Positions 7,299-48,803 of a stretch of DNA of 64,000 nt are shown here, piece after piece. The position numbers and the translations under genes are program-made. Origin of the DNA: Cenococcum geophilum (lineage: Eukaryota); contig CP158635.1 of NCBI GenBank assembly GCA_050273025.1, positions 8,246,001 through 8,310,000 of the forward strand, in the 5' to 3' direction. Within the stretch, counting starts at the first letter, position 1; each line of letters begins with the position of its first letter. The notes under the pieces were generated by a model that saw only the letters and a list, made by a program, of their open reading frames with translations, ran no database searches and was not told the DNA's origin.

Positions 7299-9398
7299 AT
7301 ATCCCTTATACTAGTAAATACGGATACCGAGTTATTAATAAGCGGTTGCTATTAAGTAAAGCTCCTATATTACTAATATAGAAGTATAAGGTAGACCTTT
7401 TTTAAAACGGTCCTTTAGGTAAAAAGAGGCTCTAGTTATATAAGCTCTACTATTTAGCTTAAAGACTAGGTGCTTTACTTATAATTAACAGCAATAATTA
7501 TATTAACTGCCATTTAAAATTAAAGCATAACCTTATTATTAACCCTAAAAGTTATAGTAATAGAATATAATAACTAGCTATAGAAGCTTCTACTTTTGCT
7601 AGCGGTTATAAACGCCAGCTATTTTAGGCAGCTGGCTATATTTAAGCCTATATTAATTAGACAATTCTATAAGATATTACCTTTTATTAAGCTATAAGTC
7701 CTTCTATACGCGCTCTACTAATATTTAACCGTCCTTAGATCTAAGACTATCTTATAAAGGCACCTATATTACTAAGCAATTAGATTAAAACCGTATTTAA
7801 ATAGTAACGCGTTAATATTAAAGACCTCCTCCTTACAGCACTTAGTAAAATTAATCTTACCTATAATATCTAGATATCTATAAATGGAATGCTACCACTT
7901 AGTATAGTGGCTTATTGTATTAACAAAGGTAAAAACCTTTATTTAGTACTTTTAGGCCTTCTATAACTATAAGGATTATACTCTACTAAGAATATAGCAA
8001 CGGCCCTAGTATCAGTAATTTAAAAGTATTAATTTAATAATAAGCTTAGCTCTTTAATAACTAATAACGCTAGTAATAATAAGCAGCTCTATAACTACCT
8101 CTTATAAAGCCTCTTAGTGGCTAAAAAGGAGCGACTTTAGTGCGTTGGCTATATTATCAATCTTATTATTAAGGCTTTAATATATAGCAAAGACGTAAGC
8201 AAGCTTAAACGCTTAATAATTAGCGCGAGCAACTATATTAAATTTGATTTTATGCGGCAGAGAGGCTTTATAGGTAAGCTTTATAATATTATCAAATATA
8301 TTATGCAATTAATAAGACGCTATAAGGATTTTACTAAGAACTAGACTAAGGCCTATATTAAAGACAATTTTTTTTAATTAAGTAGAGCTTCTGCTTATTA
8401 AGGATAGAGGCGTTTATTAGAATTTAACCTACTTTATACTCCGCCATGCATTGCTTTTTTATAAAGTAATTAACAAATATTTATTAGCTTAAAGGAAGAT
8501 CGCTAATAATAGCTACAATCTATCTTAGGACGCGCTTACTAATAAAAATTAGCAGTAAGTAGAGTAGCTTATTAAGATCCTAAAGCCTTTTATATTAGCT
8601 ACTAAGCGTATAAAAGGTAACCTTAATAGTCCTAGTATTAAAGGCTTATATAGCGCTCTATAGAAGTTAATTACTAACATAGAGCTCCTCTATTAAATCC
8701 TCTAGTATATTTAGCTAAGCCTTAAGAATAAATGCAACTCCTTCCTTAAATTAGGCGTTGATATAGCTATTAAAAAGATTAATAAATATTTTAATAAAAT
8801 AAAGGCCGAGAGCCCTTGCTATTTTACTATAGTAATCCTTTATCTATCTCTTAAACGCGCCTACTTTTGCGATAAGTAAAAATAGTAACCCTAGTAGTAG
8901 AAGTACGCCAAGCGGTATATAGAGACTCTATTTAATAACTATATTAATAAGTAAGTAGATAAGGAAGATAAAGAACTGGTTAAGCTATAATATAAAAAGG
9001 TTTCTTGTAAATTTAATAACAATTTAGCTAATAAATATATATAGTTCTTAGTTGTAGATAAAAGCCTTACTTCTTTAAAGCGTAATTAAAAGCGTATTAA
9101 GCTTGCTAGTAAGCTTAACCACTACTATAATTGTCACAAAGCTTATATTGAGCTGTTTATTGATAAAATGGGTTAATTAATTAATGATCTTGTCTTTAGG
9201 TTAATTAACCTTAGACCTAGGGCCCTCGGGCTTAGATAAAGAGGTTTACACTATATGTGACTTGTGCACGTGACTTGTGCATAGTCTACGCCTCTAGAGA
9301 ATATAGATTATCTAATATACCCCCTTAGCTTCGAGCTCTTTGAGGTTAAAGCTAACCATCTTCCTGCTAAATTCTGCCAACTTCTGCTAACTAATCAG

Positions 9399-9425
9399 GA
9401 TTTTCCATCCCCGGGATGGAAAATC
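9399..9425. promoter_or_regulatory. 27-bp palindrome (13-1-13) in the Copia A1 3' non-coding region; function unknown
   Basis: GATTTTCCATCCC-C-GGGATGGAAAATC is a perfect inverted repeat, flanked by CTAATCAG and GCTATTGG. A regulatory role is inferred only. Confidence 0.5.
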
Positions 9426-9479
9426 GCTATTGGCTTGCTTACGGCTAGCGCCTTAGCGACCCTTCTTATGCTTATTAAT

Positions 9480-12400
9480 GCGTTAATTAAACCATAATCT
9501 TATCTAAATCCTTCCGTCTTGCTCTAATACTATCCCTTAAGTCCTCTAGTTACTTCTCCTTATTTAGCCGCTCCTTAATATCCACCATTCCAATTATATT
9601 AACGAAGCTTTAAAACCTCTACTTAGGCAGGGCCTTCGTAAGTCCATCGGCAATTATCTTCTTTATCGCTATCTATTAAAATTATACTCGTCTTATTGCG
9701 TATTCCTAACATAGCTAGTATTAATAGATATTAACGTATTAGAGCTTTGTAATTAGCTTTACCGTATCTTCTATAATTAGTTAAAGCGTCTAGGTATTAT
9801 TACATTTAATAATTAAGGGCTTATTTAGGCGTAGTGTTATTACTTTAAATAGCCTACTAATAAAGATAGCTTCCTTTACTATCTATAATAGGGCTAGCAA
9901 CTTGGCTTCTATGCTTAATATCATAACTATACCCTACTTATTTGCTCTTTAGGCAATTAGCCCCCTAAATAGCTTTATAATATATCCTTACAAGCTCTTT
10001 CTATTAATGGAGTTGTCCGTAAATAATACATTGCTAGTATAGATAAATAATTACGCTTTGCTTTTACCGTCTCTTTTATTATCTTATCCTTTATCGCGTA
10101 TTTCTTTATCTCTCCCTTTACCGTTTATTTCTTCCTTATCTCCTCTATAGTAGATTACTCTGCTTCTCGTGCTATATAGGTACTAAATAACTTTATCTGC
10201 CGCTTAATAATGCTCTTAGCTTAGGTTCTAATTAAACCTTACTAGCCGTAATACTGCGAAGGCAATATCTAAACGCGTTGTAGTAGCTATATAGAGTACC
10301 AAACCTAATTTTCTCTAATATAGTATTGTAGAGGCTAGTAGGGATATAGGACAGACTAATAGGTCTGTATTGGGGGACGGACGCGTTAGACAGATTAATT
10401 GGTAATTAGTAGGGAGGAATTTTAATTCTGCTATAGGAGTATCTAAAAGACGCCCTTTAAGATCTATCTTATACTAATTAGCTATCTTCTTAATATAGGC
10501 TTCCTGGGATAGCTATAGGAGCCTTTAGCTATAATTACGTAGTATATAGATTCCTATGAACTATTTTAGTTCGCTAAGGGTACTTATCTAGTATTCCTTG
10601 CTTAGCTCCTTGATTGCTTCTTAAGCTTTCTTCTTATCTATCTTTTAGTAGTAGAAGACAATATCGTTAACGTAGAAGAAGATAATTATTCTACCTTTTA
10701 GTATAACGTATGGCTCCTAGGGTACCTCTTTAAAACCTAATTCTATTAGTGAGCTCGTGAGATTCTTCTGCTATAATAGTAGTGATTATTGTAGTCCGTA
10801 AAGGGCTTTTCTTAAGCGTAGTACTTTATCTATCTTTCCTTTATTAAACCCTAGTGGTAGCTTTATATAGATAACCTTGTTAAAATCGTAATGGATAAAC
10901 GCATTAACTATATCTATCTATATTGTCTCTAGGTTGAATTTTACGGTAATCGCCATAAGGGTTTAGAAGGTTGTACTAGCTAATATAGTAGCTCTTATAG
11001 GTAGGTCTCCTAGGGCCTATTAATTTCCGTAGACTACTAAGCATACCTTATATTTCTAGAGAAATTTATACTTATCCGTCTTATAGACGAATACCTATAT
11101 TAAGCTAAGGACCTGCTAACCCTTTATATGCTTTTTATCTATTTCTTAAAACAACCTCATTTAATAATAAGATTGTAGGTAAGCTCGTTAAGCTTCTTAG
11201 AACTAATCTTAAAAAGGATATATATTAAGGTCGCGGATTAACTAAGGTAGTAGAGGTAAGTTCTTTCTATATAATTTGATATTACGTGTTTTACCTAATT
11301 TCAGCTTACTGTTATTAAGTTAACTATTAAGGTTAAACTTCCTTCCTACTAAAAAGGCGCCGTAATAGGCTAATATAATCCTTTTAATAACAAAGTTTTT
11401 AAACCTATTATTACAGGCTTCCTTAAATAAGTCTTTAACTAAGTTGTTAAATACCCCCTAAGTATAAAACCCGTCTCCTACTTAATAGGCGATGTCTTAA
11501 TTAGTACCTTATATATCTAACTTCGTAGAATACTCGACGTAAAAGGAATATAGAGATTCTTCGTCTTCTTCTATTAGAGGTGGCGTATAGTATATATCTT
11601 CGAGAGCTCTTATAAGCTTAAGATCTACTAATTTATTAAAGGTTTAAACTGGCTTATCGACGTTGTTGTCTTCCTCTTAAATTAATGGTTTAAATACTTC
11701 TTTATTATCTTCTAGAAGAACCTTATTCTTAGTTAGGCTATTAGGAAGTTAAATCTTCTTAATTAGTATTTCTAATTCGGCGTATAGATCCTTTAAAATG
11801 TCTATTCGCTTACCATTAAAGAATATCTTTTTGTTAAAGATAATATCCCTAGTAGAGATGACGATACCTTTGTAGGGGATCTAGATCCTATAAATATTAG
11901 TAGAGTTATAGCCAATAAGGTAGCTGATATAGGCTCGCGGATCTAGCTTACTTAGCCTTTTCTTCTTTAGCTGGGCGTCCGACGTTATTATATACGCCCT
12001 ATAGCTGTAGGCTTTTAGGTGCGCTAGTTGCGGCTTTCTTAATCTCTTATTGGCTAGGAAGGTATAGAACCTCTTATATAGTAATTTCCAACCATTGCTT
12101 TCCCGTGGCGTTTAATCTCGAAGGTAGACTATATAGTTAACTATCTCGTTCTATAGGTCGTGTGGTAGATTAGCAGCAATTCTTATTACATGTGCTCTCT
12201 TAATAATTATACCCCCTAAGCGTTCGGCGGTACCGTTCTGTGCTTAGGTATATAGCGCTAAAGGCTTAAATATAATCCCTTACGTCTGTAGCTATTTAAG
12301 GGTTCTCTTTTTCCCTAGCTCGTTGTCTAACCTAATAGTGTTAACTTTAAGGTTATACCTTAAACAAATCCATTAGATAAAATCTTTAAGCACTTATAGT

Positions 12401-14385
12401 ATCTCCTTCTCCTTGCTATGCGTTATTATAAAGTACGGGAAGGTTCTTCCTAAGAAGGTATTATAGATAAATATAACTTGTATAAAGCCAGCATACGCTT
12501 CCTTAAGGTTAGTCCAGTTAATATAGAGGTTAAGATAAAATTTATTAATATTCTGTTCTAAGAACCTTCTTAAGACCTAACGCTTAATTTTGGCGAGACT
12601 GTAATATTAACATTCCGTTATCTTTAGGCCTTAAAGCTTAACTCCTAGGGCGTTAATACCTAAATAATAAAGGCTTATAGGTCCTAGATGACCTAGACGC
12701 AGATACTATAAACGTACATTACCTTTTAAATCTGGACGAACGTTTCTTGACGATACTCTGCGCTTCCGTTAGTGGCGCGGCAGATGGCTAATATTAAATG
12801 CGGATTTTAAGCTTCCTAATTAGACGTATTTAATAGTTTATTATCTATAATGTTCTTCTATTTAATATAGGATTGTATTATCCTTCCGAACTAGAAGATT
12901 ATTATCTCCTTTATTGTCCTAGTAGTACCCTTATTTTTAAAGTAGACGGAACAACACTAGATTTATATTAAAGTCCGTATAAAAGGCAACGTCCTTAAGA
13001 CGTAGGTTTCCCTTACTCTTGTCTGGTTTTATAACTTAGATAGTAATATTACTGTAGCCTAGTATAGGCACTTCTAAGCTGCCGGTAATAACGTATTCGT
13101 ATTTTAGAGCTTTCCTAAAGTTATAGAAATAAGAGAGGTTATTAAAGATATAGAAAGTGGTTCCTAAGTTAAGAATAGTTAATAACTTTAGCGGATGGAG
13201 TTAACTGGTGTAATACGATTCTAGGAATATCGCATTAGCTTCTCCCTTAATCTTAACTGTTTTTTAGCTCTTATCCTATTATTATTAAGCTTTACTAGCA
13301 TTTATTTCCTTAAGCTTAAGTCATTTTACTTAGGCAGCTAGATCTTTGTCCTGTTTTACCTTTATAAGCACCCTTTTTATACGTATACCTACGGCTTTAA
13401 ATCCCTTAGGCCTCTTGCACTTAAATAGGTACTAATAGTTAGGAAGGGTGTGCCCCCTTATATCGTATACTAGGCATTTAAGGTTCTTTAACCTTTTGGA
13501 AGAAGACGTCTCTTCTTTAATTAAATTTGTCCCTGCCCTTTTTTAGCTATAAGGTAAGCTATTCCCTTTTCTTTTTAGACCTTTAGTAGCGGAGGTATCC
13601 TCTTTAGATTCTTTTGCAAAGTCTACGTTAAATACACTCCCTCTCGCTGTCATAGGTACGGCTTTAGAAAGGTTTTGGAATGCTTCTTATAGCTCTATTA
13701 CTACTTTACGGTATCCTAATAAGTGAGCCTTTTTAGTATCATTTGCCTGCTTTATGTATAGAACAAAATAGGTTTTGCTTATAGGTCGTATTATATTCAT
13801 AAGGTCTATTAGCTAGATCCTATTAGTTATCTATAAAAGATCGTGCTTCTTAGCTATTTTTATTATATACTCCCATTAGTTAAGCTATTAGGTAATTTTT
13901 GCCTACTTAAGACCCTTAAGCGAATCTATATATTATAGCTGTACCTTCCTCATTATAAAGTTCCTTAAGGGCTTAGTATCTTCTTTTAACCAAGTTAGCT
14001 ATTCCTTAACTGTGAGGGAAGGGTTGAGCAGTAGCTTCTTCTAAATTAATACTGTAGACGTAATCTAGGTGTAGATCTGTTAAAGATAATCTTCCTATCT
14101 TAGGAAGTACTTTATATCCTAGTTATAGTATCGTCTGCTATTCTCGTACGCTTTCTGTTAATTTGTTAAGAGCTATATATATAAGGTTGCATTCTCATTA
14201 AAATCTATAACCTTTAGATAAGGTGGTTTTTTAAGTAGACCTTCTTAAGGTGCTTCTATGGCTGGGTTAACGTAGGCCCAAATTTGCTAATTTATAAGGG
14301 CTTATAGTTGCCAGATCTATTGCTCCCAGTCTTCTAGCTTATTAAGAATAATCGTAGTTAATAAACTTAACGTTGGTAAAGTCAT
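9480..14385 (-). pseudogene. pol: Copia A1 gag-pol polyprotein (RIP-broken)
   Basis: ATG at 14385 (MTLPTLSLLTTIILNKLEDWEQ*IW). Integrase NGTAER ~12230; RT LVVYGN** ~11030, LRKALYGL ~10800, FFYVNDIV (YVDD) ~10660-10680; RNase H towards 9500. Confidence 0.9.
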
Positions 14386-15600
14386 TTAACTAATAGGTAA
14401 AGGAGGAATTAAGATGGTATTTTGTTGTTAGGATCGCCCTTATCGTTAAGATCGTCCTTTTAACGATTAAGGTAGACTCTCGTAGAATCTCGTGGAATCT
14501 CGTAGAATCTTATTCTGTGACAATTAAGGTAGGATTTCTGTCAGAGTCTACGTCCTGACGATAAGGTGTCAGAGTCTAACAATAAGGTAGAATTTCTTTA
14601 AATAATTAAGTAATAGCTAAATAGCTTCTTAAGTCGGCGGACTAGGCTCATAACTATCACAAAGCTCGTATTAAGCTGTTCATTAATGAAATGGGTTAAT
14701 TAATTAATGATCTTATCTTTAGGTTGATTAACCTTGGACCTAGGGCCCTTAGGCTTAGATAAAGAGGTTTACACTGCACGTGACTTATACACGTGACTCG
14801 TGCACGGTCTACGCCTTTAGAGAATATAGATTATCTAACAATAATATAGACCTTAAGTTTATTAAGATCTATTTTAATAACGGTAATAAGCGGAATAACG
14901 TTATTTCCAATCCTCTTAACTAGTGGCTTAAAATTAATTAAATCCTTTATCTAACACTTGCTAAAATTACTCTAAATCTATTCTCTATACTAGTAATAGG
15001 CTCTATATATAAATTAAGCTTTAGTTAAGCTAAAAAGATTATTACTAATAAGCGTAATAAACTATTAGCCGACATAATTAAAGCAGATTAGTATTAGAAG
15101 TAGTAGTTAATTAAAGGCCTTTTACTAAGCAGTTTAATTAACTATATTAACTCTAATAGAGCTTTAACTATACCCTAGTTAATAAGCTTAAATATTAATC
15201 TTATTAGCTATATACTAACTATAGAGGCAGAAAAGCTAGCTTAGTAAGGTAGATTTAATAGAGCTTTATATTTAATTAAATTTAAGATAAAAATAGAGCT
15301 TCCGGAGCCCTTACCACTAACCATTTTATTTATTATTTAAGCCTCTACGGATGCAGGCTAAATTTAGCTAAATTTAAATACTGTATTAGGTAAATTAGGG
15401 CTAGATTTTAATTAGGTAATGTTTATATTTATATATAAAGTAGTGCTGCTAAAAATCCGAAATAAAACACTATAAAGTCTATATAAATTTCCTAATTAGG
15501 ACGGCTAGCTGGCAGTTTAATAGTTAGCGTACGTTATCTAATAGTTAGCGGACAGCGAGCGATCTAATTAACGCAGTTAGCTATTTTTCTCAAGCTTGTA

Positions 15601-16690: not shown

Positions 16691-19600
16691 TAATAAGAGC
16701 TCTAATTATTTTTAAGCTAGCTTAAAAATAAGTTAACTAGTAACGCTAACCACTACCTAATTAAAGCTAACCGACTTTATTACGCCCTAAGTTAACTAGG
16801 AAAAGAGGTAGCTAACCTTATTAAACCTCTCTAGCTAACCTTAGTATAAAGCCTAGTTATACTTCTTAAAGCTATATATAATAACCTAAACCGCTAAGCT
16901 ATTACTTAGAGAAAAATAAACTATATAGCTTAAGGACTAAAAAGTTTCCTAGTATACTTCTCCAAATTTAACCGTTATATAAAGAAAACTAGCTAGAATA
17001 ACTCTACACTAGTTAATAGCCTTATTAAATCCCTAAACCCTAAACTAAAAACCTCCCTAATAGGCGTAGACTTACTAAAAGCCCTTAATGCCTACGTAAA
17101 TGTTATTAATAAATAGTACAATAATATACTACCCTAATACTAAAACACGCTCCTTACTACAATATAATAGCCCTATAAATGTCTACTAAGTTATCTTAGC
17201 TTAAGCACCCTAATGCTATAGATATTAATACTAAGACCCTAGGATACGCCCCACTAGGGTCCTTTAAATAAGAATAACGTATTAAGCTAGGCCTCTGCTT
17301 TAAATATAGAAGTAATTCCTACCTCTCTAACTACTACTCTATCCCTATACCTAAATACGATTTATAAACGGCTAATACTAATAACCGTTTAACGCATTAA
17401 TCTTCTAGTTACTATCCCTAATCTTTACTTAGTTCTAGCCCTATATTTAGTAAGCACTACTTATAAGGGCAAAGCTATAACCAACGTCCTATAGGAACCC
17501 CTTCTCGCTCGTTACTAAAAGGTATATCTTAAAGTTAAGTCGCTTTCCAGGACGGCTCTGCCTTAGGATCTTATTAAATACCTTAAATATTATAAACTCT
17601 AACTCTTAGAATTGTAGTATAACCGTTAACTATTGTCTTTAGTAGAATAATTAATAGGCTAATACTTAAGTCCTAATTAATACAGGAGCTAGTAGTATAG
17701 AATTTATTAATAAGATCTTTATATAAGATAATGGTTTTACCCTAACCCCCCTTAACTAGTATATTAATATATTTAGATTTAATAGTAAACGCATAGTCTT
17801 ACGCTAAATTACCTATATAGTATACCTAAAACTCTAATACCTAAACCACAAAGAACTAATTAGGCTTTTTATTACTACCCTAAATTACCTAGTAATTCTT
17901 AAATAACCCTAGATAAAGATATATAAGGTAACCATTAATTAGGATAACCTTAAGCTTCTATTTACTGCCCCGCGTTATAAGTAAAAATACTCTATAATAT
18001 ACTACTTTAACCCTAAACTAAAATCTAGAAAATCCACTAAGATTTACTATCCTAAGATTTCCACTAATATCCACTCTACGCCTAAGGAATCTACCAGATT
18101 CTATTAGCACAGAAATTCTACCAAATTTTACTAATATAAGAATTCCACTAATATCTACTAAGGATCCGAAAATTCTACTAAATTCTATAAGTTATTACTA
18201 AGTACTATACTACTCTAAACTAAGTAAAGACTTAAGCTTAGTATATAAAACTACTAGAAGAACTAGTATCCTATAATAAAAAGAATACTTAAAGAATCTG
18301 AACCTAAACTTAAATAAGAAACTATAGACAATCTAAGTAAGCTCAGTACCCTAGATATCCGCATAATTAGAGCTACTCCGTTAGTATAACTTACTAAAAA
18401 ACCTAAATATATAATCTTCGCTATCACTTTAGCTAATATTAAAAAGGCCTTAGTACTAAAGAAGTATACTAACCCTACTATAAAGGTACTAGTAGAGTAA
18501 TATAACCGCCTAAAGGCATTCTTATAGAAGGAAGCTAATAAGCTACTAGAACACTAACTATATAATTATAAGATTATACTTAAAAAAGGGAAGTAGCCTA
18601 TATTTAGACCCCTATATAGGATGTCCTAAAATAAACACTAAGTATTATAAAAGTACCTATATAAGAACCTAAGTAAAGGATTTATTAGAGCAAGCTCTTT
18701 ACCTATAGCCGCACTAGTAATCTTTATTAAGAAACTAAGTAGCGGACTACGCTTTTACGTAGACTACTAAGCTCTTAACGCTGTTACCGTTAAGAACTAA
18801 TATCTAATCCCGCCAATATAAAAGACGCTAAGCTAATTAAGTAAGACTCGCTTCTATACAAAGCTTAATATTATCTCTATATTTAACCGCCTTTATATTA
18901 TAAAAGGAGATAAATAGCTTACTGCATTTTATACCTAATATAAATTATTTAAATACTTAGTAATACCCTTTAGCCTTATAAACGCTCTAAGCTTGTTTTA
19001 ATATTACGTAAATAATACCTTATATCCTTACCTAGATATCTTCCATACTGCTTATATTAACGATATTCTAATATATAGGAATAACTTAACTAAATACCAG
19101 ATACACATTAATTTTATTTTATAAGCCCTATAAGGAGCTAGTCTATAATTAAATGTAGATAAATATAAATTTCATAAAATAGAAGTCCTATACTGTTAGG
19201 TAAAACCTAAGTAGATAGTTATATAGCCGCAAGGTATGGGCAACCCTAAAGCAACCTAGGGGTGACTTGCCCGTAAGGTACGTGCGCTATATATACCTAG
19301 GGAAAACCCTTCCTACCTTGTACACAGACTCCTCCTTTTTCCCTTAAGGATTTGTCTCTATATATACAATATACCCTATTATTCTATTATTGGACTCTCT
19401 ACCTATATTCTTACCTTATATTTAAATCCTTACCAATCCCCTTAGGAGGATAGCCGGTTTAATTTTTCTATAATACCTCTAAAAAGAAAACTAACGCCTA
19501 CACCTAATAGTAATATACTAGCGATACGACCGCAAAACGCTTTAGGATCTAGTGTAGACGAAACCGCTAAAAGCATACTAGTAGAATCTAAGCTACCTTT

Positions 19601-20541
19601 AGAATCTTAAAACGATCAGATATCTACAAACGCTAGAAACTAGTTTAACTTATATACCTAGGCTTAAGAAGAGCTTAGTAAGGTTACTAGCGTTTTACCA
19701 AATACTACTAACCTAAAGGAGCTAGATAAACTAGCTAAGAAAATAACTAACTTATAGAGTATTATTAATTTAATAAAGCCCTTTTGTTAACTCTTTAGTA
19801 AGGAGTATAAGTTACGTGGTAAATGCATACGCTAAGCAAATCTTAACGCCCTAGTTAAGAAGTCACTACCTAATATTAGCGGTATAACTTAACAGCATTT
19901 TAACTAGTGGATCGCCGCAGTTAAAACCCAATTTAAGGTTAATAACGCCGACTACAACTATAAATAACGTACGCGCTAGGCTATTAAAGGTCTTATAAAA
20001 GAAAAGATAATCGCTTAATTAGTGTATTAACGGCTAGGTATTAAGGATAAAGGTTCTTTACTATAGGATAAGTTTAAGACTATAGTCTAAGACTAGATTA
20101 GGAACCCTATAGTTAGGCGCTTTAATAATACTACTATGTACTATATAGCTATTATAAAGGAGAACTAAAGGTTTAACGTCTTCCTAGCCCGTATATATAG
20201 CTTAGAGGACCGCTTCTTATACACCCCTTTTATTAATCCTAAGTAATAGGTAGACTTTTAGTTCTTACGCCTTCTGTTACAAAGCTCGTATTGAGCTGTT
20301 TATTGATGAAATGGGTTGATTAATTAATAATCTTATTTTTAGGTTGATTGACCTTGGACCTAGGGCCCTTGGGCTCAGATAAAGAGGTTTACACTACACG
20401 TAACTCGTGCACGTAACTCGTGTACGGTCTACGCCTCCAGAGAATACAGATTATCTAACACACCCCCTTAGCTTCGAGCTCTTTAAGGTTAAAGCTAACC
20501 ATCTTCCTGCCAAATTCTACCAACTTCTACCAACCAATTAG

Positions 20542-20568
20542 GATTTTCCATCCCCGGGATAGAAAATC
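20542..20568. promoter_or_regulatory. 27-bp palindrome, Copia A2 copy
   Basis: GATTTTCCATCCCCGGGATAGAAAATC (one G>A), flanked by CCAATTAG and GCTATTAG. Confidence 0.5.
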
Positions 20569-21412: not shown

Positions 21413-21638
21413 CGGACGCGTTATAGTGGTTATATAGAGTACTAAACCTAATTTTCTCTAATATAGCATTGTAGAGGCTGGTAGGGATATAGGATAGACT
21501 AATAGGTCTATATTAGGGGACGGACGCGTTATAGTGGCTATATAGAGTACTAAACCTAATTTTCTCTAATATAGCATTGTAGAGGCTGGTAGGGATATAG
21601 GATAGACTAATAGGTCTATATTAGGGGACGGACGCGTT
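21413..21638. repeat. 108-bp tandem duplication inside Copia A2 pol
   Basis: CGGACGCGTT recurs at 21413, 21521 and 21629 (period 108). Copia A1 has only one unit (~10274-10382). Confidence 0.9.
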
Positions 21639-29107: not shown

Positions 29108-29383
29108 TATTAGGAAAAATTTACTAGCATCTAATTTTACTTTTCTGCCATTTTAGCATTTTCTAGCATTTAGCAGCTAAATGCTAATACTTAATTATAA
29201 ATGCGGCATTTGGCTACTAAATATAGCATTTAGCTACTAAATGCTAGTACTTAGTAATAAATGCGGCATTTAGCTGCTAAATGCTAATACTTAATTATAA
29301 ATGCTGCATTTAGCTGCTAAATGCTAGAAAATGCTAAAATGGCAGAAAGGTAAAATTAGATACTGGTAAATTTTTTCCTAATA
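29108..29383. mobile_element. 276-bp fold-back MITE, TA-flanked (Tc1/mariner-type TSD)
   Basis: TATTAGGAAAAATTTACTAGCATCTAATTTTACTTTTCTGCCATTTTAGCATTTTCTAGC is mirrored at the right end. Internal palindromic GCATTTAGCAGCTAAATGC units; TA at 29106-29107 and 29384-29385. Confidence 0.8.
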
Positions 29384-33800: not shown

Positions 33801-36729
33801 AACCGTCTCCGCATTACAAAAGGGGATAAATGGCTTACTGCATTTCGTACCCAATATGGACTATTTAAGTACTTAGTAATACCCTTTAGCCTTATAAACG
33901 CTCCAAGCTCGTTTTAACATTATATAAATAATACCCTGCGCCCCTACCTAGACATCTTTCATACTGCTTATATTAACGATATCCTAATATATAGTAATAA
34001 CCTAACCGAATATCGGAAATACGTTAACTTTATCCTATAAGCTCTACACGGAGCTAGATTATAATTAGATATAAATAAATGCGAGTTCTATAAAACGGAA
34101 GTCTTATACCTTAGACTCCTTATTTCTATAAATAGTATATAAATAAACCCGAAGAAAGTCAAAGTAATTATAAACTAGTAAGAACCTAAGAACGTTAAGG
34201 ACGTAAGAGCCTTTATAGGATTTACTAATTTCTACTAACGGTTTATTAATAACTTCTTTGCCCTAGTTTTACCCCTTATAGCTTTAACCTAAAAGGATAA
34301 AGTCTTTATCTTTAATAAGGAATATAAGAAGGCCTTTGCCTATCTAAAGGTTATATTTACTACTACGCCTATACTCTAATACTTTAACCTAAACTAAATA
34401 AGTATTATAGAAGCCGACTTATCTAACTATATTATTAAAAGCATCCTATCTTAATATAACGAGGATAGAGTATTATACCCTATAATATACTTCTTAAAAT
34501 AACTAAGCCTAGCTAAATATAACTACAAGATCTACAATAAGGAATTATTAGCTATTATTAGATATTTTAAATAATAGCGACCCAAACTAGAAGGCGCTGG
34601 ATTTTTAATTAAGGTCCTTAGCGACTATAAGAATCTATAGTACTTTATAACCACGAAATAGCTAAGTTATTATTAGGCCCGCTAATTAGAATATCTATTT
34701 TATTTCTAATTCTTAATTATATACCGCTTAGGCGTCTAAGGCTAAAAGCCTAACGCCCTAACCTAACGCTGGCAAGATATACCAGCCCTAAAAGAAGCAC
34801 ACTCTTACTAATATTAGACCCTACTTTACCCTAAACTATTTAACCCTCTTACTAAAGATCTTATAGTACACGTTCTTAAATAATAAGTTTATCTAAGAGA
34901 CGCTTAAGCTAATATAAGATGGCATTAAACGCTTTAAAAAGATTTCTTTAAATAAATACAAAGCCTATAGAAACCGCTTATATTACTAAAACCGTCTAGT
35001 TATTCCTAATTACGATAAGCTTAAGCTTAAACTCCTTAAAAATATATACAATCTACCTATCGCCGGCTACCTAGGCTAAGGAAAGACCCTAGAACTACTT
35101 TAACGGGAGTATTATTAGCCGAATATGTATAATATAACACGAAGGTATATCTTTAGCTGCTATACCTACTAATAAGCTAAAGCCTCGCATAAGACGTATA
35201 ACGGTCTTTTAAAGCCGCTACCTGTTCCGGACTAAAGATAGAAGAATATCTTAATTAATTTTATTATTAACCTTCTTAAGAGTAGAGGCTATATAAACAT
35301 TATAGTAGTTATAGACCAACTATCTAAAATAAGATACTTAATCGCCTGCCCTAATATATTAACGCCTACTATTGCCTAATTATTCCTAGATTATATATGG
35401 AAACTCTACAGACTCCCTAAAACGATTATCTCTAATAGAGGCAGCTAGTTTATCTTAGCATTTTAGAAAAAACTAACTACTTAACTCTATATTAAAGCAC
35501 TATTATTTACTGCGTATTACCTAAAAATGGATAGCTAAATAGAACGCGTAAATGCTATAATAGAATAGTATATTTGGATATATACGTTATATTTATAGGA
35601 TAACTAAATTAACTAGCTCGTATTCGCCGAGTTTACTATAAATAATTCCGTCTCGGAAACTATAAAAGTCTCTCCGTTCCTAGCTAATTGCGGCTAGCAC
35701 CTATAAATAGGTTTTAAACCCTTTAGTGATGTTCCTTACCCTGCTTATTACACCTTATAAGTTACAGAAGTAAATAAATTCGTAGAAAAGATAGAGGAAT
35801 TATAATAGTTTCTTACTAATAAAATAATATGGGCTTAATCTGTCTATAAAGCCGCAGCGAATAAGAAATAAGCCCTAGTACTAGCTTACTAAATTAAGAA
35901 TTTTGTCTAGCTAAATATAAGAAATCTAAACACGAAATAACCTATTAAGAAACTTAATTAGAAGAACGCTGGCCCTTATAAGGTTAAAAAGGTTATCTTT
36001 TCTTATGCCTACTAACTGAAGCTCCCTAATACGGTTAAAATCCACCCTATATTTTATACGTTAGTCCTTTACCCTACTACCCCTATATTAGACGCCTTAC
36101 CTAGACAGATATAAGACCCTCCCCTACTAGTTAAAGTAGATGGTAAGAATAAGTACTTTATTAAAAGAATTAATAATATTAAGTATAATAAACGGAAACG
36201 CTAATATATATATCTTACGAAATAGAGAGGCTTTATTAAGTCCTTATAGGAACCTATTAACTTTATAGGACTTATATAAGCCGTAAAAGACTTTTATAAA
36301 CTCTACCTAGAACTACCACAGCCCCATCTTATAAAAGCTTAAGTTTAAAGGGGGGGTACTATTATAGGACACCCCCGTAATACCTTATACACATCTACCT
36401 GTTTTTACTAACTTAGCAATTAAAGACTAACCGTGAAATGGCAATTTAACGGCAATCTAATGGAAATCTAACGGCAATCTATGGCATTCTGCTATATTCT
36501 GCTAAGTTCTATTAAATTCTACTAAGTTCTGCTAGGACTATAACCTAAATCCTATTCTCCCTATATACGTATTAACTAAGCAACCAAGTTAATAATATAT
36601 GCCCTTTCTTCCCGTTTTCCTACCTTCTTTCCTTACGCAACGTTTTAACCTCCTTATACGGTTTATATACATAGCTTAATAATATCTACCTTACTATATA
36701 TTATCGTCGCTTATACTCACTCCGTGACG
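30843..36729 (+). mobile_element. Full-length Ty3/Gypsy chromovirus family B copy 2 (5887 bp), nested in Gypsy-C
   Basis: 370-bp LTRs at 30843-31212 and 36360-36729 (last base G instead of A); TSD GACAC (30838-30842 / 36730-36734). Order is gag-PR-RT-RH-IN. Chromodomain DGKNKYFIKRINN..YIYLTK*RG ~36140-36230; PPT AAAGGGGGGGTAC. Confidence 0.95.
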
Positions 36730-36833
36730 GACACTCCTTAATGCTATACTACCTATATTATAGTAAAAGTTACGGGTTATAGGCCTTCTGGGCGGCCCTA
36801 GTACTACTATACCATACTAGTAAGTAGTATATA

Positions 36834-37012
36834 TGTTACGGCTCCGTAACGGATCTAGTTAGGGGGCTTGCTTAAGCCTTGGCATATATATAGACGTATT
36901 CTTTCCCACCTTCTACTCCTTATCTTAATATCCGGGTTTATAGACTACTAATTATATAGGCTTGTATACGTTCTACGGCGCTCGTGCCTTAATTAACTAA
37001 GTCGCTGTAATA
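36834..37012. mobile_element. Solo LTR (179 bp) in Gypsy-C pol
   Basis: TGTTACGGC...GCTGTAATA inverted termini; TSD ATATA (36829-36833 / 37013-37017). Confidence 0.8.
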
Positions 37013-39194
37013 ATATATATAGTATACGAGCGACCCTTATAAACTTGGCGCCGGCAGACTAAAGCGTCCTACTTTTCTTTTTAAGACTACTTTAACTAGC
37101 TTAATAGCGCTTAACCCTAGGGAAGACCCCTTAGCTTAGGCTATGGTCCCCTATAATAACCTAGTGAGTTACCTATATATTATACGTTACTTTACTAGCA
37201 CTAACTTTACGCAGAGTCTCGTGCCATAGTAAGAGGTAGTAGTAGCTACTTTAGCCAAAACGGCGTTTATAGAATACTCCCCTAAGTCACTAGTTAATTT
37301 TATTTATAGAGTATAAAAAAGGGACGTATTTACACGCTTTATATATAATTAGTTAACCTAGGAATAAGTTCCTGCTAGTAATAAGGACTATACACTTAAT
37401 AATTAAGGACTCCTAAGGTAAAATAATAAGGTTTAGGTACTAAATTATATACTACTGTAATAGGAGATCCTTAAGCGGAATTATAATAATCCTATAGGTG
37501 GCTATTATAGTTTTAACCGTACTTTTAAGGTAATTATATAGAAGTATATTTGGAACGGCCTTACCTAAGACCTCTACAAATACCTAGATAATTATAATGC
37601 CTACTAACGCTCTAAATCGCGCCGCTATAAACCCTATAGTAAGCTATAGCCTCTTTAGGTCCCTACTTAAGCCTAACGGCATTATTTATTTAATTTTATT
37701 ATGGATTTCCTAGAGTCTAAAACTTCTAATAGCGTAGAGTATAACTCTGTCCTTATTCTTATAAACCGTTTTATAAAGCTAGTATACTACTATTTAGTGC
37801 ATAAAATAATTAATGCTATACAATTTATAGAACTCCTATTTAGAGTCTTTACGTAAATAGGGCCTTTAGATAATATTATCTTTAATAGGGGTAGTATATT
37901 TATAAGCGAGTACTAAAGCACTATATGCTACTATTTCCGCGTTTAACATAAACTTAGCACCGCATTCTACCCGTAAATAGATAGTTAGATAAAATATTAG
38001 AACTAGGAGCTTAAGGAATACCTATATATATTTATAAACTAGGAACAGTCTAATTAGGCCTCCCTACTTAAAGAAGTAGCCTTTGCCTATAACTTTAAGG
38101 TCTATACTATGATAAAGCGTTCCCCTATTAAGCTCGCCTATAGCTAGCTACTAAACGTCCTAAATAGAGTCCTGGATAGCGTTTAAGACGCCTAATAAGG
38201 TAGGGAGGAGTTTAAGTTAACAAATATCTAACTTGCAGAGATATATTTATAACGCCTACGCCTTATATATAAGGCAGCGGCGGCGTTAATAATACACGCC
38301 TAAAAGCTTTATATAAAATACTATAATCGTTACTACCTAGCTAAGTACTTTACCATTAGTAAATAAGTCCTGCTCTCCTCTAAGAATATCTATATAAAAC
38401 GTCCCTATAAAAAGCTTAACTATAAGTTTATAGGACCGTTTTAGATTCTAGAGTATATAGGGCAGTAAGTATATAAGCTAGAGCTTCTACCTACTATAGT
38501 ACGGCTCTACCTAGTCTTCTATATCTCCTTACTAGAGCTTTATAGGTTATACCCTAGGTTTTAACCCCCGGTAGTAAAAGAGCTTAAGAAAGGTAGCTAG
38601 GAAGTAGAAGCAATTATCGCCTACTAGGATTATACTAAATAACCACAGTACCTTATTAAATAGCTAATATAGATAAATAAGTATAATAAATAGAAATACG
38701 AGATAGAACTTAAGAATTGTTAATAACTGCTAGATAAGTACTGTAAGCGGAACACCCTAGCCGTACAGCTAAAGCGTAGGCGAAAAGTAAGCGCTACTAT
38801 TAAAATATAACCTATATTAAAGCGGAGCAGAGGACGTCCCAAGGAATTAAAGAATAAGTAATAATTACTATAAGAACTGCGGCGTATGTATAGGGTGAAG
38901 TTTTAATTTATTAATATCCTATATAAGCCGCACTTTAATATAACCCGGCGATGCTAGTAACTTATAGGCAAGGCTATAGTATATACTAGCAACGAAGCTT
39001 AATTTAAAAAGCACCCTTTCTAGACCTAGTTTATTACTCTATGCTAGCTAAGCAGATTATTTATATATTAGAGAATAGGCCTATTTATAACCGGGGTCTA
39101 TTTAACTAGAGTCTATAACTTACTAGTAACCCGCTAGTAGTAACCTATACTAATAACTTACACTATTCTACGTATATGCTATATAGATAACGCG

Positions 39195-39410
39195 CAAGGC
39201 TAAAGCATAGGTTAGTAGCGGATTTAATAGGTATATAGCCTTACCGTCCTAAACCTAGCTGTATATAAGTAACCTATAACCTACCTATAAAGTATATACG
39301 GCGCTATACTGGTATAGCGTAAGGCTAAAATAGGGTTAGTGGCGGATTTAATAGGTATATAGCCTTACTGTCTATATATCTGGCTGTATATAAATAACCT
39401 ATAATTAACC
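39195..39410. repeat. ~125-bp-period direct repeat in the Gypsy-C 3' non-coding region
   Basis: AAGGCTAAA..GGTTAGT.GCGGATTTAATAGGTATATAGCCTTAC..GCTGTATATAA.TAACCTATAA occurs at ~39196 and ~39321. Confidence 0.8.
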
Positions 39411-39525
39411 CGTAAGGTACTAGCGACCTACCTATATAAGTAAGCTTTTAGAATATTTCTAGTCTACTAAATTTAGGTAACGGTATTAAGCTCTACTAGC
39501 TCTACCTATTAAATAGACCAATTAG

Positions 39526-39552
39526 GATTTTCTATACTAGGTATATAAAATC
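39526..39552. promoter_or_regulatory. Variant of the 27-bp palindrome in the Gypsy-C 3' region
   Basis: CCAATTAG-GATTTTCTATACTAGGTATATAAAATC-GCTATTAGCTCG; same flanks and spacing as the Copia copies. Confidence 0.45.
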
Positions 39553-42500
39553 GCTATTAGCTCGGTTAAATGCGGGGGAGTCTTAATAATGTAAATCCAA
39601 CTAATTAGACAACTTTAACCACTAGTCGAAGTTCCTTAATATCTTTATACCGCGTATATATACTACCCATCTCTCTATACACAAAATTAAAACACTCTTT
39701 CCCCTCTAAATTTTTTCCTTACTAAGGTTTTTTATGGGGTTTTATTAAGGCTTAAGTATATAAAGGATCGGGGACAACCCTTTTTAAAGGGGGGGAAGGC
39801 ATTATTAGGTAAAACCTAAGTAGATAGTTATATAGCCGTAAGGTATAGGCGACCCTAGAGCAACCTAGGGGTGACTCGCCTATAAGGTACGTGCGCTATA
39901 TATACCTAGGAAAAACCCTTTCTACCTCGCATATAGACTCCTCCTTTTTCCCTTAAGGATTCGTCTCTGTATATACAATATACCCTATTATTCTATTATT
40001 GGACTCCCTATCTATATCCTCACCTTATATATACCTTAGGCTTTTTATTTCTATAAATAGCATATAAATAGCCCTAAAGAAAGTTAAAGTAATTATAAAC
40101 TAGTAAGAACCTAAGAATGTTAAGGATATAAGAGCCTTTATAAAATTTACCAATTTCTACTAACGGTTTATTAATAACTTCTTCGCCCTAGTTTTACCCT
40201 TTATAGCTCTAACCTAAAAGGATAAAGCCTTTATCTTTAATAAGGAATATAAAAAGGCCTTTACTTATTTAAAGGTTATATTTACTATTACGCCTATACT
40301 CTAATACTTTAACCTAAACTAAATAAGTATTATAAAAGCTAACTTATCTAACTATATTACTAGAGGCATTCTATCTTAATATAACGAAGATAGAGTATTA
40401 TACCCCGTAGTATACTACTTAAAATAACTAAGCCTAGCTAAATATAACTATAAGATCTATAATAAGGAGTTATTAGCTATTATTAGATATTTTAAATAAT
40501 AGTAACCTAAACTAAAAGGCGCCGGATTTTAAATTAAGGTCCTTAGCGACTATGAGAATCTATAGTACTTTATAACTATAAAACAGCTAAGCTATTATTA
40601 GGCCCGCTAGTTAGAATATCTATCCTATTTCTAATTCTTAATTATATACCGCCTAGGCGTTTAAGGTTAAAAGCCTAATACTTTAACTCAATGTTTACAA
40701 GACGCGCTAGTACTAAAAAAAGCGCGCTCTTACTAAAACTAAACCCTACTTTATCCTAAACTGTTTAATCCTCCTATTAAAGACCTTATAGTATATATTC
40801 TTAAAATAACCAATTAATTAATTAAACAGATTATAATTAATAAATACCTAAATAACGAGTTTATCTAAAAGACGCTTAAGCTAATCTACGATAGCATTAG
40901 ACGCTTTAAGAAGATCTCTTTAAGTAAATATAAAGCTTATGGAAACTGTTTATATTACTAGAACTATCTAGTTATCCCTAATTATAATAAGCTTAAGCTT
41001 AAGCTCCTTAAACATATATATAACCTACTAGTAGCTAGCTACCTAAGCTAAGGAAAAACTCTAGAGCTACTTTAACGGGAGTACTATTAGCTAAATATAT
41101 ATAATATAATATAAAGGTACGTCTCTAGCTACTATATCTGCCGACGAGCTAAAGCTTTATATAAGACGTATAACGGCCTTTTAAAGCTACTACCTATTCT
41201 AGACCAAAAATAGAAGAATATCTTAATTAACTTTATTATTAATTTCCCCGTAAGTAAAGGCTATATAAATATTAGAGTAGTTATAGACCAACTATCTAAA
41301 ATAAGATACTTAATCGCCAGCCCTAATATATTAACACCTACCATCGCCTAATTATTCCTAGATTATATATAGAAACTCTATAGACTTCCTAAAATAATTA
41401 TCTTTAATAAAGGCAGCTAGTTTATCTTTATATTTTAGAAAGAACTAACTACTTAACTCCGTATTAAAGTACTATTATTTATAGTATACTACCTGGAAAC
41501 AGATAGCTAAACGGAACGTATAAATGCTATAATAAAACAGTATATTTAGATATATACTTCGTACTTATAAAATAACTAGATTAACTAGCTTATATTCGCT
41601 AAGTTTACTATAAATAATTCCGTTTTAGAAACTATAAAGGTCTCCCTATTTCTAGCTAACTACGGCTAGTATCTATAAATAGGTTTTAAACTCTTTGGTA
41701 ATATTCCTTGCCCTACTTATTACGCCTTATAAGTTATAGAAGTAAATTAATTTATAAAGAAGATAGAGGAACTATAATAGTTCCTTACTAGTGAAATAAT
41801 ATAGGCTTAATCTGTCTATAAAGCCGTAGTAAATAAAAAAGAAACCCTAGTACTGGCCTACTAAATTAGTAACTTTATTTAGCTAAATATAAGAAATATA
41901 AATATAAAACAACCTATTAAGAAGCTTAATTAGAAGAACGCTAGCTCTTATAAGGTTAAGAAGGTTATCTCTTTTTATACCTACTAACTAAAGCTTCCTA
42001 ATACGGTTAAAATCCACCCTATATTTTATACGTTAGTTCTCTACCCTATTACGTCTATACCAAACGCCCTGCCCAAATAGATATAAGACCCTCCCCTACT
42101 AGTTAAAGTAAATAGTAAAAATAAGTACTTTATTAAAAGAATTAATAATATTAAGTATAATAAACAGAAACGCTAATATATATATTTTACAAAATAGAGA
42201 GGCTTTATTAAGCCCTTATAGGAACCTATTAACTCTATAGAACTTATATAAGCTATAAAAGACTTTTATAAACTCTACCTAAAACTACTATAGCCCTATC
42301 TCGTAGAAGCTTAAGTTTAAAAGGGGGGTACTGTTATAAAACACCCCCGTAACACCTTATGCATATCTACCTATTTCTATTAACTTAGTAACTAGAGACT
42401 AACCACAAGATAATAATCTAATAGTAATCTACGGCAATTTAACGGCAACCTACTATATTCTACTATATTCTACTAAGTTCTACTAAGTTTTACTAAGTTC

Positions 42501-47767: not shown

Positions 47768-48079
47768 ACTGTAGTAACTAAGACGCCTTAATATATAACT
47801 GTACTACGGTGACTAAGACGCCTCTATATACAATTGCACTATAGTAACTAAGACACCTTAATATATGACTATACTGTAGTAACTAAGACGTCTTAATATA
47901 GGACTGCACTGTAGTAACTAAGACGCCTTAATATATAACCGCACTATAGTGACCGAAATATCTTAATATAGGACTGCACTGCATTAACCAAGACGCCTTA
48001 ATATAGGACTATACTATAGTGACTAAGACGTCTTAATATAGGACTATACTATAGTAACTAAGACGCCTTAATGTAGGAA
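47768..48079. repeat. 35-bp minisatellite, ~9 copies, directly after the Crypton-1 stop
   Basis: Unit ~ACTGTAGTAACTAAGACGCCTTAATATAGGACTGC, contiguous with no spacers. Confidence 0.9.
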
Positions 48080-48358
48080 TAGAGCCCGTTTAGGTGTTAT
48101 AAATTTAGAGCAATATTACGTAACTGTCTAGAAGTACCGATCTAATACAAATTATATACCTTTTCGCCTAAAATCGCGTGCGAAAGTACTTGGGGGCGGT
48201 TACTGCGCGACCTTATACGGGGTTCGAGCGCGTTATTAGTAGGAGTAGCCCTAACCTCGTATTAACCCGGGTCGTAACCACGCTAAATTAGCCCCCCCAA
48301 TATGTAATAGATATCTTATTAGGGCCGCTAAGGCGCTAGTAGTAAGCGAGCTAATAGC

Positions 48359-48385
48359 GATTTTCTATCCTAGGGATGGAAAATC
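48359..48385. promoter_or_regulatory. 27-bp palindrome just downstream of the Copia D pol stop
   Basis: GATTTTCTATCCTAGGGATGGAAAATC. The region 48321-48395 matches Copia A 9388-9463 in reverse orientation. Confidence 0.5.
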
Positions 48386-48803
48386 CTAATTAGCTAGTTT
48401 AAGTTAGGGTTTATAAAATATTATACTCCTACTCTCTTTTAACCCAACCTTTAACTTATATACGTAGAGTATTTATATTAATAAACGTCTTTAGTGCCTT
48501 ATTTAGGTTCGCCTTTATTATTACATCTACTAAGTTATCTTAGCTATTAATCTATTAAATCTTAAAGAGTTCTTAACGCTTATAGGATTGTTAAAGTGCT
48601 ATAATATTAATTATAAGGCGCTTCTCCTTTATAGTACTAAGCTTAATTAAACACTTATAGAGGAAATATAAGTCGGTATATACGATTATAGGGATAATAG
48701 AAAGTTTAAGTCAATCTATAATTATCTTTAGGGTAGTTCTAATTACAATTACTATATTAACTCCGCTAACTATTCTATATATCTCTAATACTAAAACGCT
48801 TTA

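Follow-up and report, generated by a model that had tools for sequence, protein, structure and literature searches.

A CCAAT-flanked palindrome common to Copia-order and Ty3/Gypsy retrotransposons of Cenococcum geophilum, a possible movable regulatory or hairpin element

The window, i.e. the whole stretch of DNA that was analysed, comprises 64,000 nt of Cenococcum geophilum (GCA_050273025.1, contig CP158635.1, 8,246,001-8,310,000, forward strand) and holds the retrotransposons listed in Table 1. In Copia A copy 1, a single frame encodes RVT_2, retroviral SH3-like, and Pol_BBD domains when RIP stops are read as X. The Ty3/Gypsy element encodes RVT_1 (~29627-30080), RNase H (~30350-30740), integrase zinc (~37461), and SH3_Tf2-1 (~38370-38544) domains, and it harbours two nested elements, Copia A copy 2 and a further Gypsy (30841-36721). 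Element D bears a genuine Conserved Hairpin Site (CHS) 9-mer at 54148-54156 and, relative to its relatives, a 440-bp insertion at 48805-49240. Its 3' LTR, PPT, and ~150 bp are missing left of 48308, where Crypton-like DNA with a CryptonF-like gene (NDC10_II + GCR1_C) on the + strand abuts it at 48307/48308.

Table 1. Retrotransposons of the window and the module copies that they carry
Feature	Positions	Strand	Details
Copia A copy 1	9126..14840	-	LTRs 9126-9317 and 14650-14838; PPT complement 9320-9332
Module copy 1	9391..9463	-	Core 9391-9433 (palindrome 9399-9425) + 30-bp arm 9434-9463; Copia A copy 1 3' UTR
Ty3/Gypsy element (earlier Gypsy-C)	19196..40033	+	229-bp LTRs 19196-19424 and 39805-40033
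Copia A copy 2	20274..26083	-	LTRs 20274-20461 and 25896-26083; PPT 20463-20475; ~90% identity to copy 1
Module copy 2	20534..20606	-	Core 20534-20576 (palindrome 20542-20568, one RIP change) + arm; Copia A copy 2 3' UTR
Module copy 3	39518..39560	+	Core only, heavily RIPed; palindrome 39526-39552; 3' UTR of the 229-bp-LTR Gypsy
Module copy 4	48321..48393	+	Arm 48321-48350 + core 48351-48393 (palindrome 48359-48385); truncated 3' end of element D
Element D	48308..54370	-	Copia-order (integrase before RT), GalEa-type; 5' LTR 54157-54370

A strict palindrome pattern allowing up to three mismatches matched the window three times, at copies 1, 2, and 4 (zero, one, and two mismatches, respectively), and gave zero matches in any shuffle of the window. 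A RIP-tolerant pattern added copy 3 (three mismatches), bringing the total to four matches versus 0.02 expected. This confirms the claim of the first-pass annotation that a CCAAT-flanked 27-bp palindrome is common to unrelated retrotransposon families. The ~75 bp that it had reported as common to Copia A and D proved to be 73-85 bp (9379/9391-9463 versus 48321-48405, reverse complement) at 85-92% identity; the Gypsy copy has 46 bp in common at 87% identity. No module was found in the window Gypsy family with 365-bp LTRs.

Both Copia A cores lie between pol and the PPT, that of copy 1 being ~60 bp upstream of the PPT in sense. Module copy 3 is ~1 kb past the integrase SH3 domain and 245 bp ahead of the 3' LTR, in keeping with the ~250 bp given earlier. 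In element D the module does follow the end of pol, as had been proposed (~45 bp past the stop), but this pol is not on the left, because D is a minus-strand element to the right of the module. The last aligned pol residue of relatives is 51-268 bp from the palindrome. Relative to coding sense, the module has opposite orientations in Copia A on the one hand and in D and Gypsy on the other, as was correctly noted at the outset.

The portable unit is a 43-44-bp core, CCAAT-N3-palindrome-N3-ATTGG, in which a 13-1-13 palindrome is framed by inverted CCAAT boxes, with a 30-bp arm on one side in many families. Copy 1 reads CTAAT-cag-palindrome-gct-ATTGG. Several window boxes have been RIP-mutated to CTAAT or ATTAG, and less mutated relatives read CCAAT/ATTGG; RIP transitions aside, conservation of each box is at least 90% across 115 distinct rows. 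The shared core has sharp boundaries, as DNA contigs belonging to this genome part from copy 2 at 20536 and 20579. The asymmetric parts (3-nt spacers, central base, and arm) persist in units that are turned round with respect to the transcribed strand, and a tandem duplication of the module with a 102-bp period occurs in six loci of one subfamily.

The palindrome is kept through two symmetric changes that are not of RIP type: pair 11:17 has flipped (C:G>G:C) in some rows, and one copy bears a symmetric 1-nt deletion. Pair 11:17 reads CG in 106 of the 115 rows, GC in four, and AU in three, and is unpaired in two. The paired transversion described earlier at this pair is thus real, but it is most simply read as the flip, which six relatives show without RIP, with RIP transitions (G>A, C>T) coming afterwards.

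In a metagenome scan, a closely related fungus contributed at least 124 loci bearing the exact palindrome, a set that overstates conservation because it was picked for exact palindromes. The loci belong to many Copia-order and Gypsy families, with the module in both orientations, and even within the Copia-order group bearing the core the pol proteins are only 36-53% identical. Every instance with classifiable flanks lies in a retroelement 3' UTR or LTR, a strong positional bias. The module is either just past pol and upstream of the PPT, outside U3, as in the three window families and GalEa/Copia-order relatives, or, in a single Gypsy family, within the two LTRs. In the latter (3' LTRs in seven loci, 5' LTRs in four), the core is 59-104 nt from the U3 start of a ~243-bp LTR (TGT...ACA, PPT adjoining). 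In every case the module falls in the 3'-unique part of the genomic RNA. When Copia-type pol 3' ends were taken without selection, six of ten had the module within 500 bp and four did not. The window copies in D and Gypsy are not stray Copia A fragments, as D relatives (30 instances, 29 loci) and Gypsy relative L016 have the module in the same place. These findings support the initial proposal of a small portable cis-module that is common to different retroelement superfamilies and part of each family's own structure.

RNA reads show that the module is transcribed, including in sense RNA. In stranded reads from a related organism (run X21), resolved in 400-bp bins and partly inflated by transcripts of other module-bearing families, antisense signal was 10-fold enriched right beside the module, making up 12-29% of total signal in bins at and just past it versus 0.4-3% elsewhere in Copia A (LTR-side bin, 0.69), with sense/antisense depths of 88.3/10.9 and 19.9/4.12 for copy 1 and 37/10.6 and 26.4/3.09 for copy 2.

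On balance, the module most likely moves from family to family and serves as a regulatory or hairpin element. Our tentatively preferred reading is that it would be a promoter/enhancer cassette to which host factors bind and which recombination would have carried from one family to another. A CCAAT-binding complex may occupy each box and a dimeric factor the palindrome, with the module acting as double-stranded DNA and, once bound by host factors, as an orientation-independent promoter/enhancer. In less RIPed copies the box flanks are of type AACCAATCAG and GAGCCAATGG, which presumably fit the NF-Y/HAP preference; asymmetric parts kept in both orientations fit recognition as duplex DNA, the tandem duplication is an arrangement frequent in enhancers, and the antisense excess next to the module is an indirect hint of promoter activity. 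For genomic RNA, the module would be the upstream element in the Gypsy family with the core in U3. In the other Gypsy families, Copia A, and GalEa, it would apparently launch arm-side transcripts, antisense in Copia A, from 60-250 bp upstream of the 3' LTR. Spread could have occurred by recombination between co-resident families, probably through template switching in reverse transcription, and the module may survive where it does because the 3' UTR/U3 would be the sole compartment tolerating foreign sequence. Against this reading, in all three window families and most relatives the module is outside the LTR, so that the 5' LTR lacks it and the genomic promoter is ~5 kb upstream of it, a distance over which fungal upstream elements are not expected to act. 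Moreover, the symmetric changes keep the arms complementary, which is what a hairpin predicts.

The main rival, somewhat unlikely in our judgment, is a hairpin in RNA or minus-strand cDNA, or a self-complementary dimer-linkage site, acting in the retroelement life cycle, with proposed roles in RNA stability, export or packaging, strand transfer, or 3'-end choice. Since a palindrome reads alike both ways, such an element would work in either insertion direction. The predicted fold, stable at z-scores of -2.6 to -5.3, has a 12-bp stem that closes a 3-nt loop and continues through CCAAT/ATTGG, although any palindrome scores well. The location of the module in 3'-unique genomic RNA of all families, its presence in sense RNA, and the pairing kept by the 11:17 flip and the symmetric deletion all point the same way, and the 'extended CHS' of GalEa elements offers a precedent. 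However, template-switch 'correction' of quasi-palindromes can yield symmetric changes without selection, and asymmetric non-RIP changes exist too (position 7 of the window Gypsy copy; an extra A in L045). A hairpin also leaves without reason why its outer stem should be two good CCAAT boxes, and why asymmetric spacers and arm should be conserved in both orientations, when the corresponding RNAs would be complementary.

We consider it unlikely that the module is a functionless passenger, a by-product of reverse-transcriptase snap-back or template switching that recombined between families and was tolerated only in a dispensable 3' compartment. Its mosaic build, with the core found next to at least two different arms, would fit such an origin, as would the existence of related LTRs with the arm and one CCAAT in which six different bases replace the 38-bp palindromic part. 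Occupancy is partial, as seen for the unselected pol ends and the 365-bp-LTR Gypsy family, and the organisms behind the data all belong to one closely related group, so that the spread may be recent. On the other hand, the core is a fixed feature of many families, in two superfamilies with divergent pol, two consensus CCAAT boxes are improbable by accident, and neither the tandem duplication nor the local antisense transcription is expected of a passenger. A more speculative idea, which we regard as improbable, is that the palindrome is a selfish 'parasite of parasites'. As a self-complementary site for linkage and template switching, it would allow genomic RNAs from different families or superfamilies to pair, co-package, and recombine, so copying itself horizontally from family to family within one genome; being identical in either orientation, it would work in both insertion directions.

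A MITE-like miniature foldback transposon that inserts itself into retrotransposons is very improbable. The palindromic, TIR-like build, both orientations, the sharp core boundaries, and the related LTRs with and without the palindromic 38 bp are compatible with it, but no family has a target-site duplication around the core, the six other bases in the 'empty' LTRs mean that there is no clean empty site, and all instances with classifiable flanks are inside a retroelement 3' UTR or LTR. The earlier suggestion of a tiny autonomous mobile element is thus not supported. The suggestion of a recombination site, here a core site for the tyrosine recombinase of the adjoining Crypton-like element, fares worst and is scarcely credible: Crypton-like DNA does abut the left edge of the module in D, and tyrosine recombinases do use inverted 11-13-bp arms (13 bp in loxP/FRT-type sites, as in the module), but their spacer is 6-8 versus 1 nt, the module is internal to retroelements rather than at Crypton termini, only 4-6-bp direct repeats have been described for Cryptons, and the adjacency is unique to the window, whose Crypton protein had no tblastn match in the oriented loci (124 loci, 80 with up to 5-kb flanks). 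Two further candidates were rejected, a tRNA-derived element (ARAGORN, zero genes in 125 module stretches from the window and all loci) and a known RNA family (Rfam, zero matches at gathering score in five loci).

Retroviral dimer initiation palindromes, the constitutive transport element, and the Rous sarcoma virus enhancers upstream of the 3' LTR are structured or palindromic non-coding cis elements near the 3' LTR. To our knowledge, none has twin CCAAT boxes or is common to superfamilies, and all except the enhancers are orientation-dependent RNA elements. The first-pass annotation knew of no described equivalent; this holds for the palindrome itself, for which no match was found in the published literature, but two analogues exist. 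In the human endogenous retrovirus ERV-9/LTR12, NF-Y-bound CCAAT motifs lie in tandem ~41-nt U3 repeats with promoter and enhancer activity and both sense and antisense transcripts. Like these repeats, the module is a short unit with conserved CCAAT in a presumably regulatory part of an LTR element with sense and antisense RNA. In contrast, the ERV-9/LTR12 units are, as described, direct tandem repeats within the U3 of a single family, with no palindrome, inverted box pair, or cross-superfamily sharing, and factor binding has been shown for them but is a proposal for the module. The CHS of fungal GalEa elements is a hairpin-forming sequence with a palindromic 9-mer, placed directly after the 5' LTR instead of a primer-binding site and, as described, confined to GalEa, with a 33-62-bp extended form conserved between families within one species (Donnart et al. 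2017, PMC5445492). The module likewise is a short non-coding sequence, hairpin-forming and conserved between families of one species. It is nonetheless not the CHS: it differs in sequence, has a flank CTGATTGGT that departs from CTGATCAGT at two positions, is found at the 3' side rather than after a 5' LTR with the CHSeq1 9-mer, and occurs also in Gypsy and in an LTR, and element D has its true CHS elsewhere.

If the module is a factor-bound promoter/enhancer, families of two superfamilies would have converged on, or traded, one compact regulatory module, which would help to explain how transposons become activated in a RIP-active fungus rich in repeats and would provide a ready 43-bp element for reporters. 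If it is instead a hairpin mediating inter-family recombination, sequences would have a new path for moving horizontally between transposons. A second portable block, in which CCAAT adjoins a palindrome, is present in the same 3' UTRs as the module, in keeping with the promoter/enhancer reading, and blocks up to ~170 bp including a second palindrome are common to a GalEa subfamily and Gypsy families, mosaicism that a passenger could also produce. The presence of at least two palindrome-plus-CCAAT blocks suggests that fungal LTR elements have a modular, previously undescribed 'regulatory compartment' in their 3' UTRs.

Pattern searching of the window located the palindrome GATTTTCCATCCC-N-GGGATGGAAAATC at 9399-9425 (no mismatch), 20542-20568 (one mismatch) and 48359-48385 (two mismatches), and the strict pattern had no match in 100 shuffles. 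A RIP-tolerant pattern, which allows for the C>T and G>A changes of fungal repeat mutation, added 39526-39552, giving four matches in the window versus 0.02 expected; these are the four sites named in the first-pass annotation. By blastn, the match between the two Copia A copies takes in 138 bp surrounding the palindrome, that between Copia A and element D (the "Copia D" of that annotation) covers 73-85 bp in reverse complement, in line with the ~75 bp originally described, and that of the Gypsy copy covers 46 bp. With respect to coding sense, the module lies one way in Copia A and the opposite way in D and the Gypsy element, again as first described. The window is strongly RIP-mutated (GC ~0.33), with only one open frame of more than 150 aa, at 28608-29120 on the minus strand (together with 28832-29109). 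It lies in a low-complexity tandem region in the upstream part of a Gypsy element, with a repeated TYLP-like unit on the opposite strand, and is probably not a gene.

Host elements were mapped by self-comparison and by Pfam searches of reading frames in which stops were replaced by X (see table). Nested within the Gypsy element with 229-bp LTRs are Copia A copy 2 and another Gypsy element, at 30841-36721; the 229-bp-LTR element is in turn inserted into a copy of the latter's family, which has 365-bp LTRs and no module in the window. The region 15723-42720 is thus a three-level nest, in which the 229-bp-LTR Gypsy (19196-40033) interrupts one 365-bp-LTR Gypsy (15723-19195 and 40034-42720) and houses the other copy, at 30841-36721. 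The primer-binding-site regions of the window elements are too RIPed to read.

Retroelement and Crypton-like features in the window
Feature	Position	Strand	Content or basis
Copia A copy 1	9126-14840	-	190-bp LTRs, RVT_2 domain
Copia A copy 2	20274-26083	-	190-bp LTRs, RVT_2 domain
Gypsy ("Gypsy-C" of the first-pass annotation), 229-bp LTRs	19196-19424, 39805-40033	+	self-comparison
CryptonF-like tyrosine-recombinase gene	45250-48307	+	NDC10_II ~46110-46956, GCR1_C ~47478-47709
Element D, 5' LTR	54157-54370	-	CHSeq1 9-mer directly after it in sense

Element D had been placed with its pol just left of the 48359 module, but no Copia pol is found there. The plus-strand frame on that side instead matches NDC10_II (E 4e-23) and GCR1_C (E 1e-3) in Pfam, the domain pair by which CryptonF tyrosine-recombinase transposons are defined in Kojima & Jurka 2011. 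This gene has a GC of 0.40, is less RIPed than its surroundings and is followed by a 35-bp tandem array (47768-48078, 8.9 copies); a second NDC10_II fragment lies at ~42860-43575 (minus strand), beside a Gypsy LTR end. The 48359 module belongs to D, which extends rightward on the minus strand: likeness to its relatives sets in abruptly at 48308 and extends beyond 52000, reaching ~54370. Directly after the 5' LTR, D carries CTAATTAGT in sense (54148-54156), with CTAATCAGT and CTGATTAGT at this place in relatives. The sequence is the CHSeq1 9-mer from the Conserved Hairpin Site (CHS) that GalEa elements carry, substituting for a tRNA primer-binding site, the arrangement described for fungal GalEa Copia elements in PMC5445492. 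Because of this 9-mer and the sharp edge of likeness, D is a 3'-truncated GalEa-type Copia, lacking the 3' LTR, the PPT and ~150 bp, beside Crypton-like DNA, which it meets exactly at 48307/48308. Polyproteins of the GalEa type were unrecognised by Pfam, even in less RIPed loci; such elements were classed by domain order, CHS and tblastn among copies. D also contains a 440-bp insertion (48805-49240) that is absent from its relatives and matches a stretch of one metagenome locus (L019) in both orientations, as an inverted-repeat piece.

Scanning metagenome contigs with a 23-base core returned at least 125 exact palindromes in at least 124 loci, mostly long, RIPed fungal contigs with a mean GC of 0.385. 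Flank clustering of the listed loci gave many families. The largest cluster among the matches listed is the D/GalEa family (at least 30 instances), followed by a Gypsy family (at least 18, with additional singletons sharing its flanks) and a second Copia-order family (at least 16); other large clusters are further Gypsy and Copia-order families. X-read pol sequences from the window and three loci served as tblastn queries for 76 listed instances, all in loci 3 kb long or more. Of these, 35 come after a Copia-order pol end (28 in one orientation, seven in the reverse), as a rule 42-270 bp from the final residue aligned, and 20 lie up to 2.6 kb after a Gypsy pol (15 and five by orientation), a few of these assignments (L074, L076) resting on short matches. 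The other 21, a group that includes 5' LTRs, have no pol pointing at the module. In GalEa relatives the order is 3' LTR, PPT (AAAAGAAGAG), ~145 bp, module, ~100 bp and pol end. In one Gypsy family the module is inside the ~243-bp LTR (TGTAACGG...CCGTCACA), adjoined by a G-rich PPT, and was found in 3' LTRs of at least seven loci and 5' LTRs of at least four. Tabulated by host family, position and orientation, as initially proposed, the module is carried by Copia-order and Gypsy hosts in both orientations, and the common denominator of its sites is the segment that the genomic RNA has solely at its 3' end (3' UTR or U3). Occupancy is not universal. Among the matches listed, 47 Copia-type pol 3' ends are followed by 450 bp or more of sequence, a further 14 being set aside for lying too near the end of their locus; the 47 carry an exact module in 34 cases, a degenerate one in nine and none in four; at pol ends other than the search anchors, the module was present in six out of 10.

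The unit shared across families is CCAAT-N3-palindrome-N3-ATTGG, 43-44 bp long; 20536 and 20579 are the exact points at which DNA contigs from the window's genome diverge. The asymmetric parts of the unit, namely its central base and its 3-nt spacers (RGC at one flank and either CTG or GTG at the opposite one), invert along with the whole module. Many families have a 30-bp arm (GCCGCCAAGGCGCTAGTRGTAAGCGAG) on one side, and several Gypsy families have a different arm. The first-pass annotation had proposed looking for empty sites and target-site duplications. No such duplication was seen around the module, and related LTRs that keep the arm and one CCAAT hold six other bases in place of the 38-bp palindromic part. 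One GalEa subfamily has two modules 102 bp apart, in at least six loci. A second portable block consists of CCAAT beside an 11-1-11 palindrome, AACTTTAACCG-C-CGGTTAAAGTT, with a window copy at 39594-39620. It occurs in either orientation in a GalEa subfamily and several Gypsy families (e.g. L018 at +96..+160, L019, L028, L041 and L058), lies 56-126 bp from the first module in GalEa and three Gypsy families, and is within 400 bp of it in 22 of the 31 matches listed.

A profile search of the window and listed loci gave at least 149 non-overlapping matches (126 exact, 20 clear but non-exact and three weak), in which most changes are RIP transitions. Two non-RIP changes are symmetric. The second tandem copy reads ATGCC-G-GGCAT, a C:G>G:C flip of pair 11:17 seen in at least six loci, and L012 lacks one T in the left arm and one A in the right. 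Asymmetric non-RIP changes also occur, at position 7 of the window Gypsy copy and as an extra A in L045. The paired transversion reported for the Gypsy copy does keep symmetry and does have a non-RIP origin, but its final A:T state, shared with two other copies, appears from comparison of the copies to have come by RIP after the G:C flip. In 115 distinct rows among the matches listed, pair 11:17 is CG in 106, GC in four, AU in three and unpaired in two, with no one-sided change, and the share of paired cells across the full structure is 96.6%, versus 95.4% in shuffles; the set is dominated by copies picked for an exact palindrome, and these figures describe pairing rather than test it.

RNA evidence came from a stranded run of a closely related organism, matched to the window at 85% likeness. 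Sense reads span Copia A, module included. Molecule ends pile up at 9192 (48 molecules) and 20334 (27 molecules), ~125 nt into both 3' LTRs, which fits an RNA start at this point; the pile-ups probably mark the U3/R boundary, with an R-U5 of only ~60-66 nt. Antisense depth in copy 1 is 0.69 at 9000-9400, 10.9 at 9401-9801, 4.12 at 9802-10202 and 1.11 at 10203-10603, and 0, 10.6 and 3.09 in the matching bins of copy 2, at a resolution of 400 bp only. Beside the module, antisense makes up 12-29% of total signal, versus 0.4-3% elsewhere. Transcripts of other families with the module reversed may partly explain the first antisense bin but not the next, and the excess in bins beside the Copia A modules points to an RNA that starts on the arm side and runs into pol.

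We tentatively favour a duplex-DNA cassette, one to which the CCAAT-binding complex and a dimeric factor would attach at putative sites and which, once bound, would act as promoter or enhancer. This preference rests on the paired CCAAT boxes, the placement in U3 in one family, the duplication in tandem, the conservation of the asymmetric parts whichever way the unit lies, and the antisense RNA nearby. U3 repeats of ERV-9/LTR12 are a documented analogue. The position outside the LTR in most families counts against such a cassette and in favour of an RNA or cDNA hairpin, a somewhat less likely reading that also accords with the symmetric changes and with the constant place in the 3'-unique RNA segment, traits that recall the cross-family "extended CHS" of GalEa outlined in PMC5445492. 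That the module is a functionless passenger of recombination seems rather unlikely. In all readings the sharing across families would be best explained by recombination between co-resident elements. An autonomous foldback element is highly improbable, and a Crypton recombination site more so: a Crypton link was rejected, the window Crypton protein having no tblastn match in the listed loci.

Other identities were set aside. A possible resemblance of the arm to the D-arm region of an initiator tRNA was considered and dropped; ARAGORN found no tRNA genes in the window and listed loci that would indicate a tRNA or SINE origin, and no Rfam family reached gathering score in five loci. A Helitron 3'-end hairpin, prompted by CTAG after the D copy, was rejected, with no Helitron features and CTAG unconserved across families. 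A "CT-box" core promoter was discarded as independent evidence, the pyrimidine-rich tract downstream of the arm being the coding end of pol in the L014 family. Palindrome 15-mers had no literature match and 11-mers matched unrelated primer lists only. No description of the module was found in the article text searched; the supplements of PMC5445492 may hold 3'-end alignments. It is akin to LTR regulatory repeats and conserved retroelement hairpins, and is set apart from known kinds by its sharing across superfamilies, its inverted CCAAT pair and its modular company.

Two loci show further insertions or neighbours. In L065, an LTR of the module-bearing Gypsy family (TGTAACGGG...) has inserted at the right edge of the palindrome, severing it from the second CCAAT. 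In L002, intact host genes (phosphatase-like and Nse1-like frames, on one flank of the module at a distance of 1.1-5 kb) lie 1.1 kb from a GalEa copy, and such elements therefore also border gene space.
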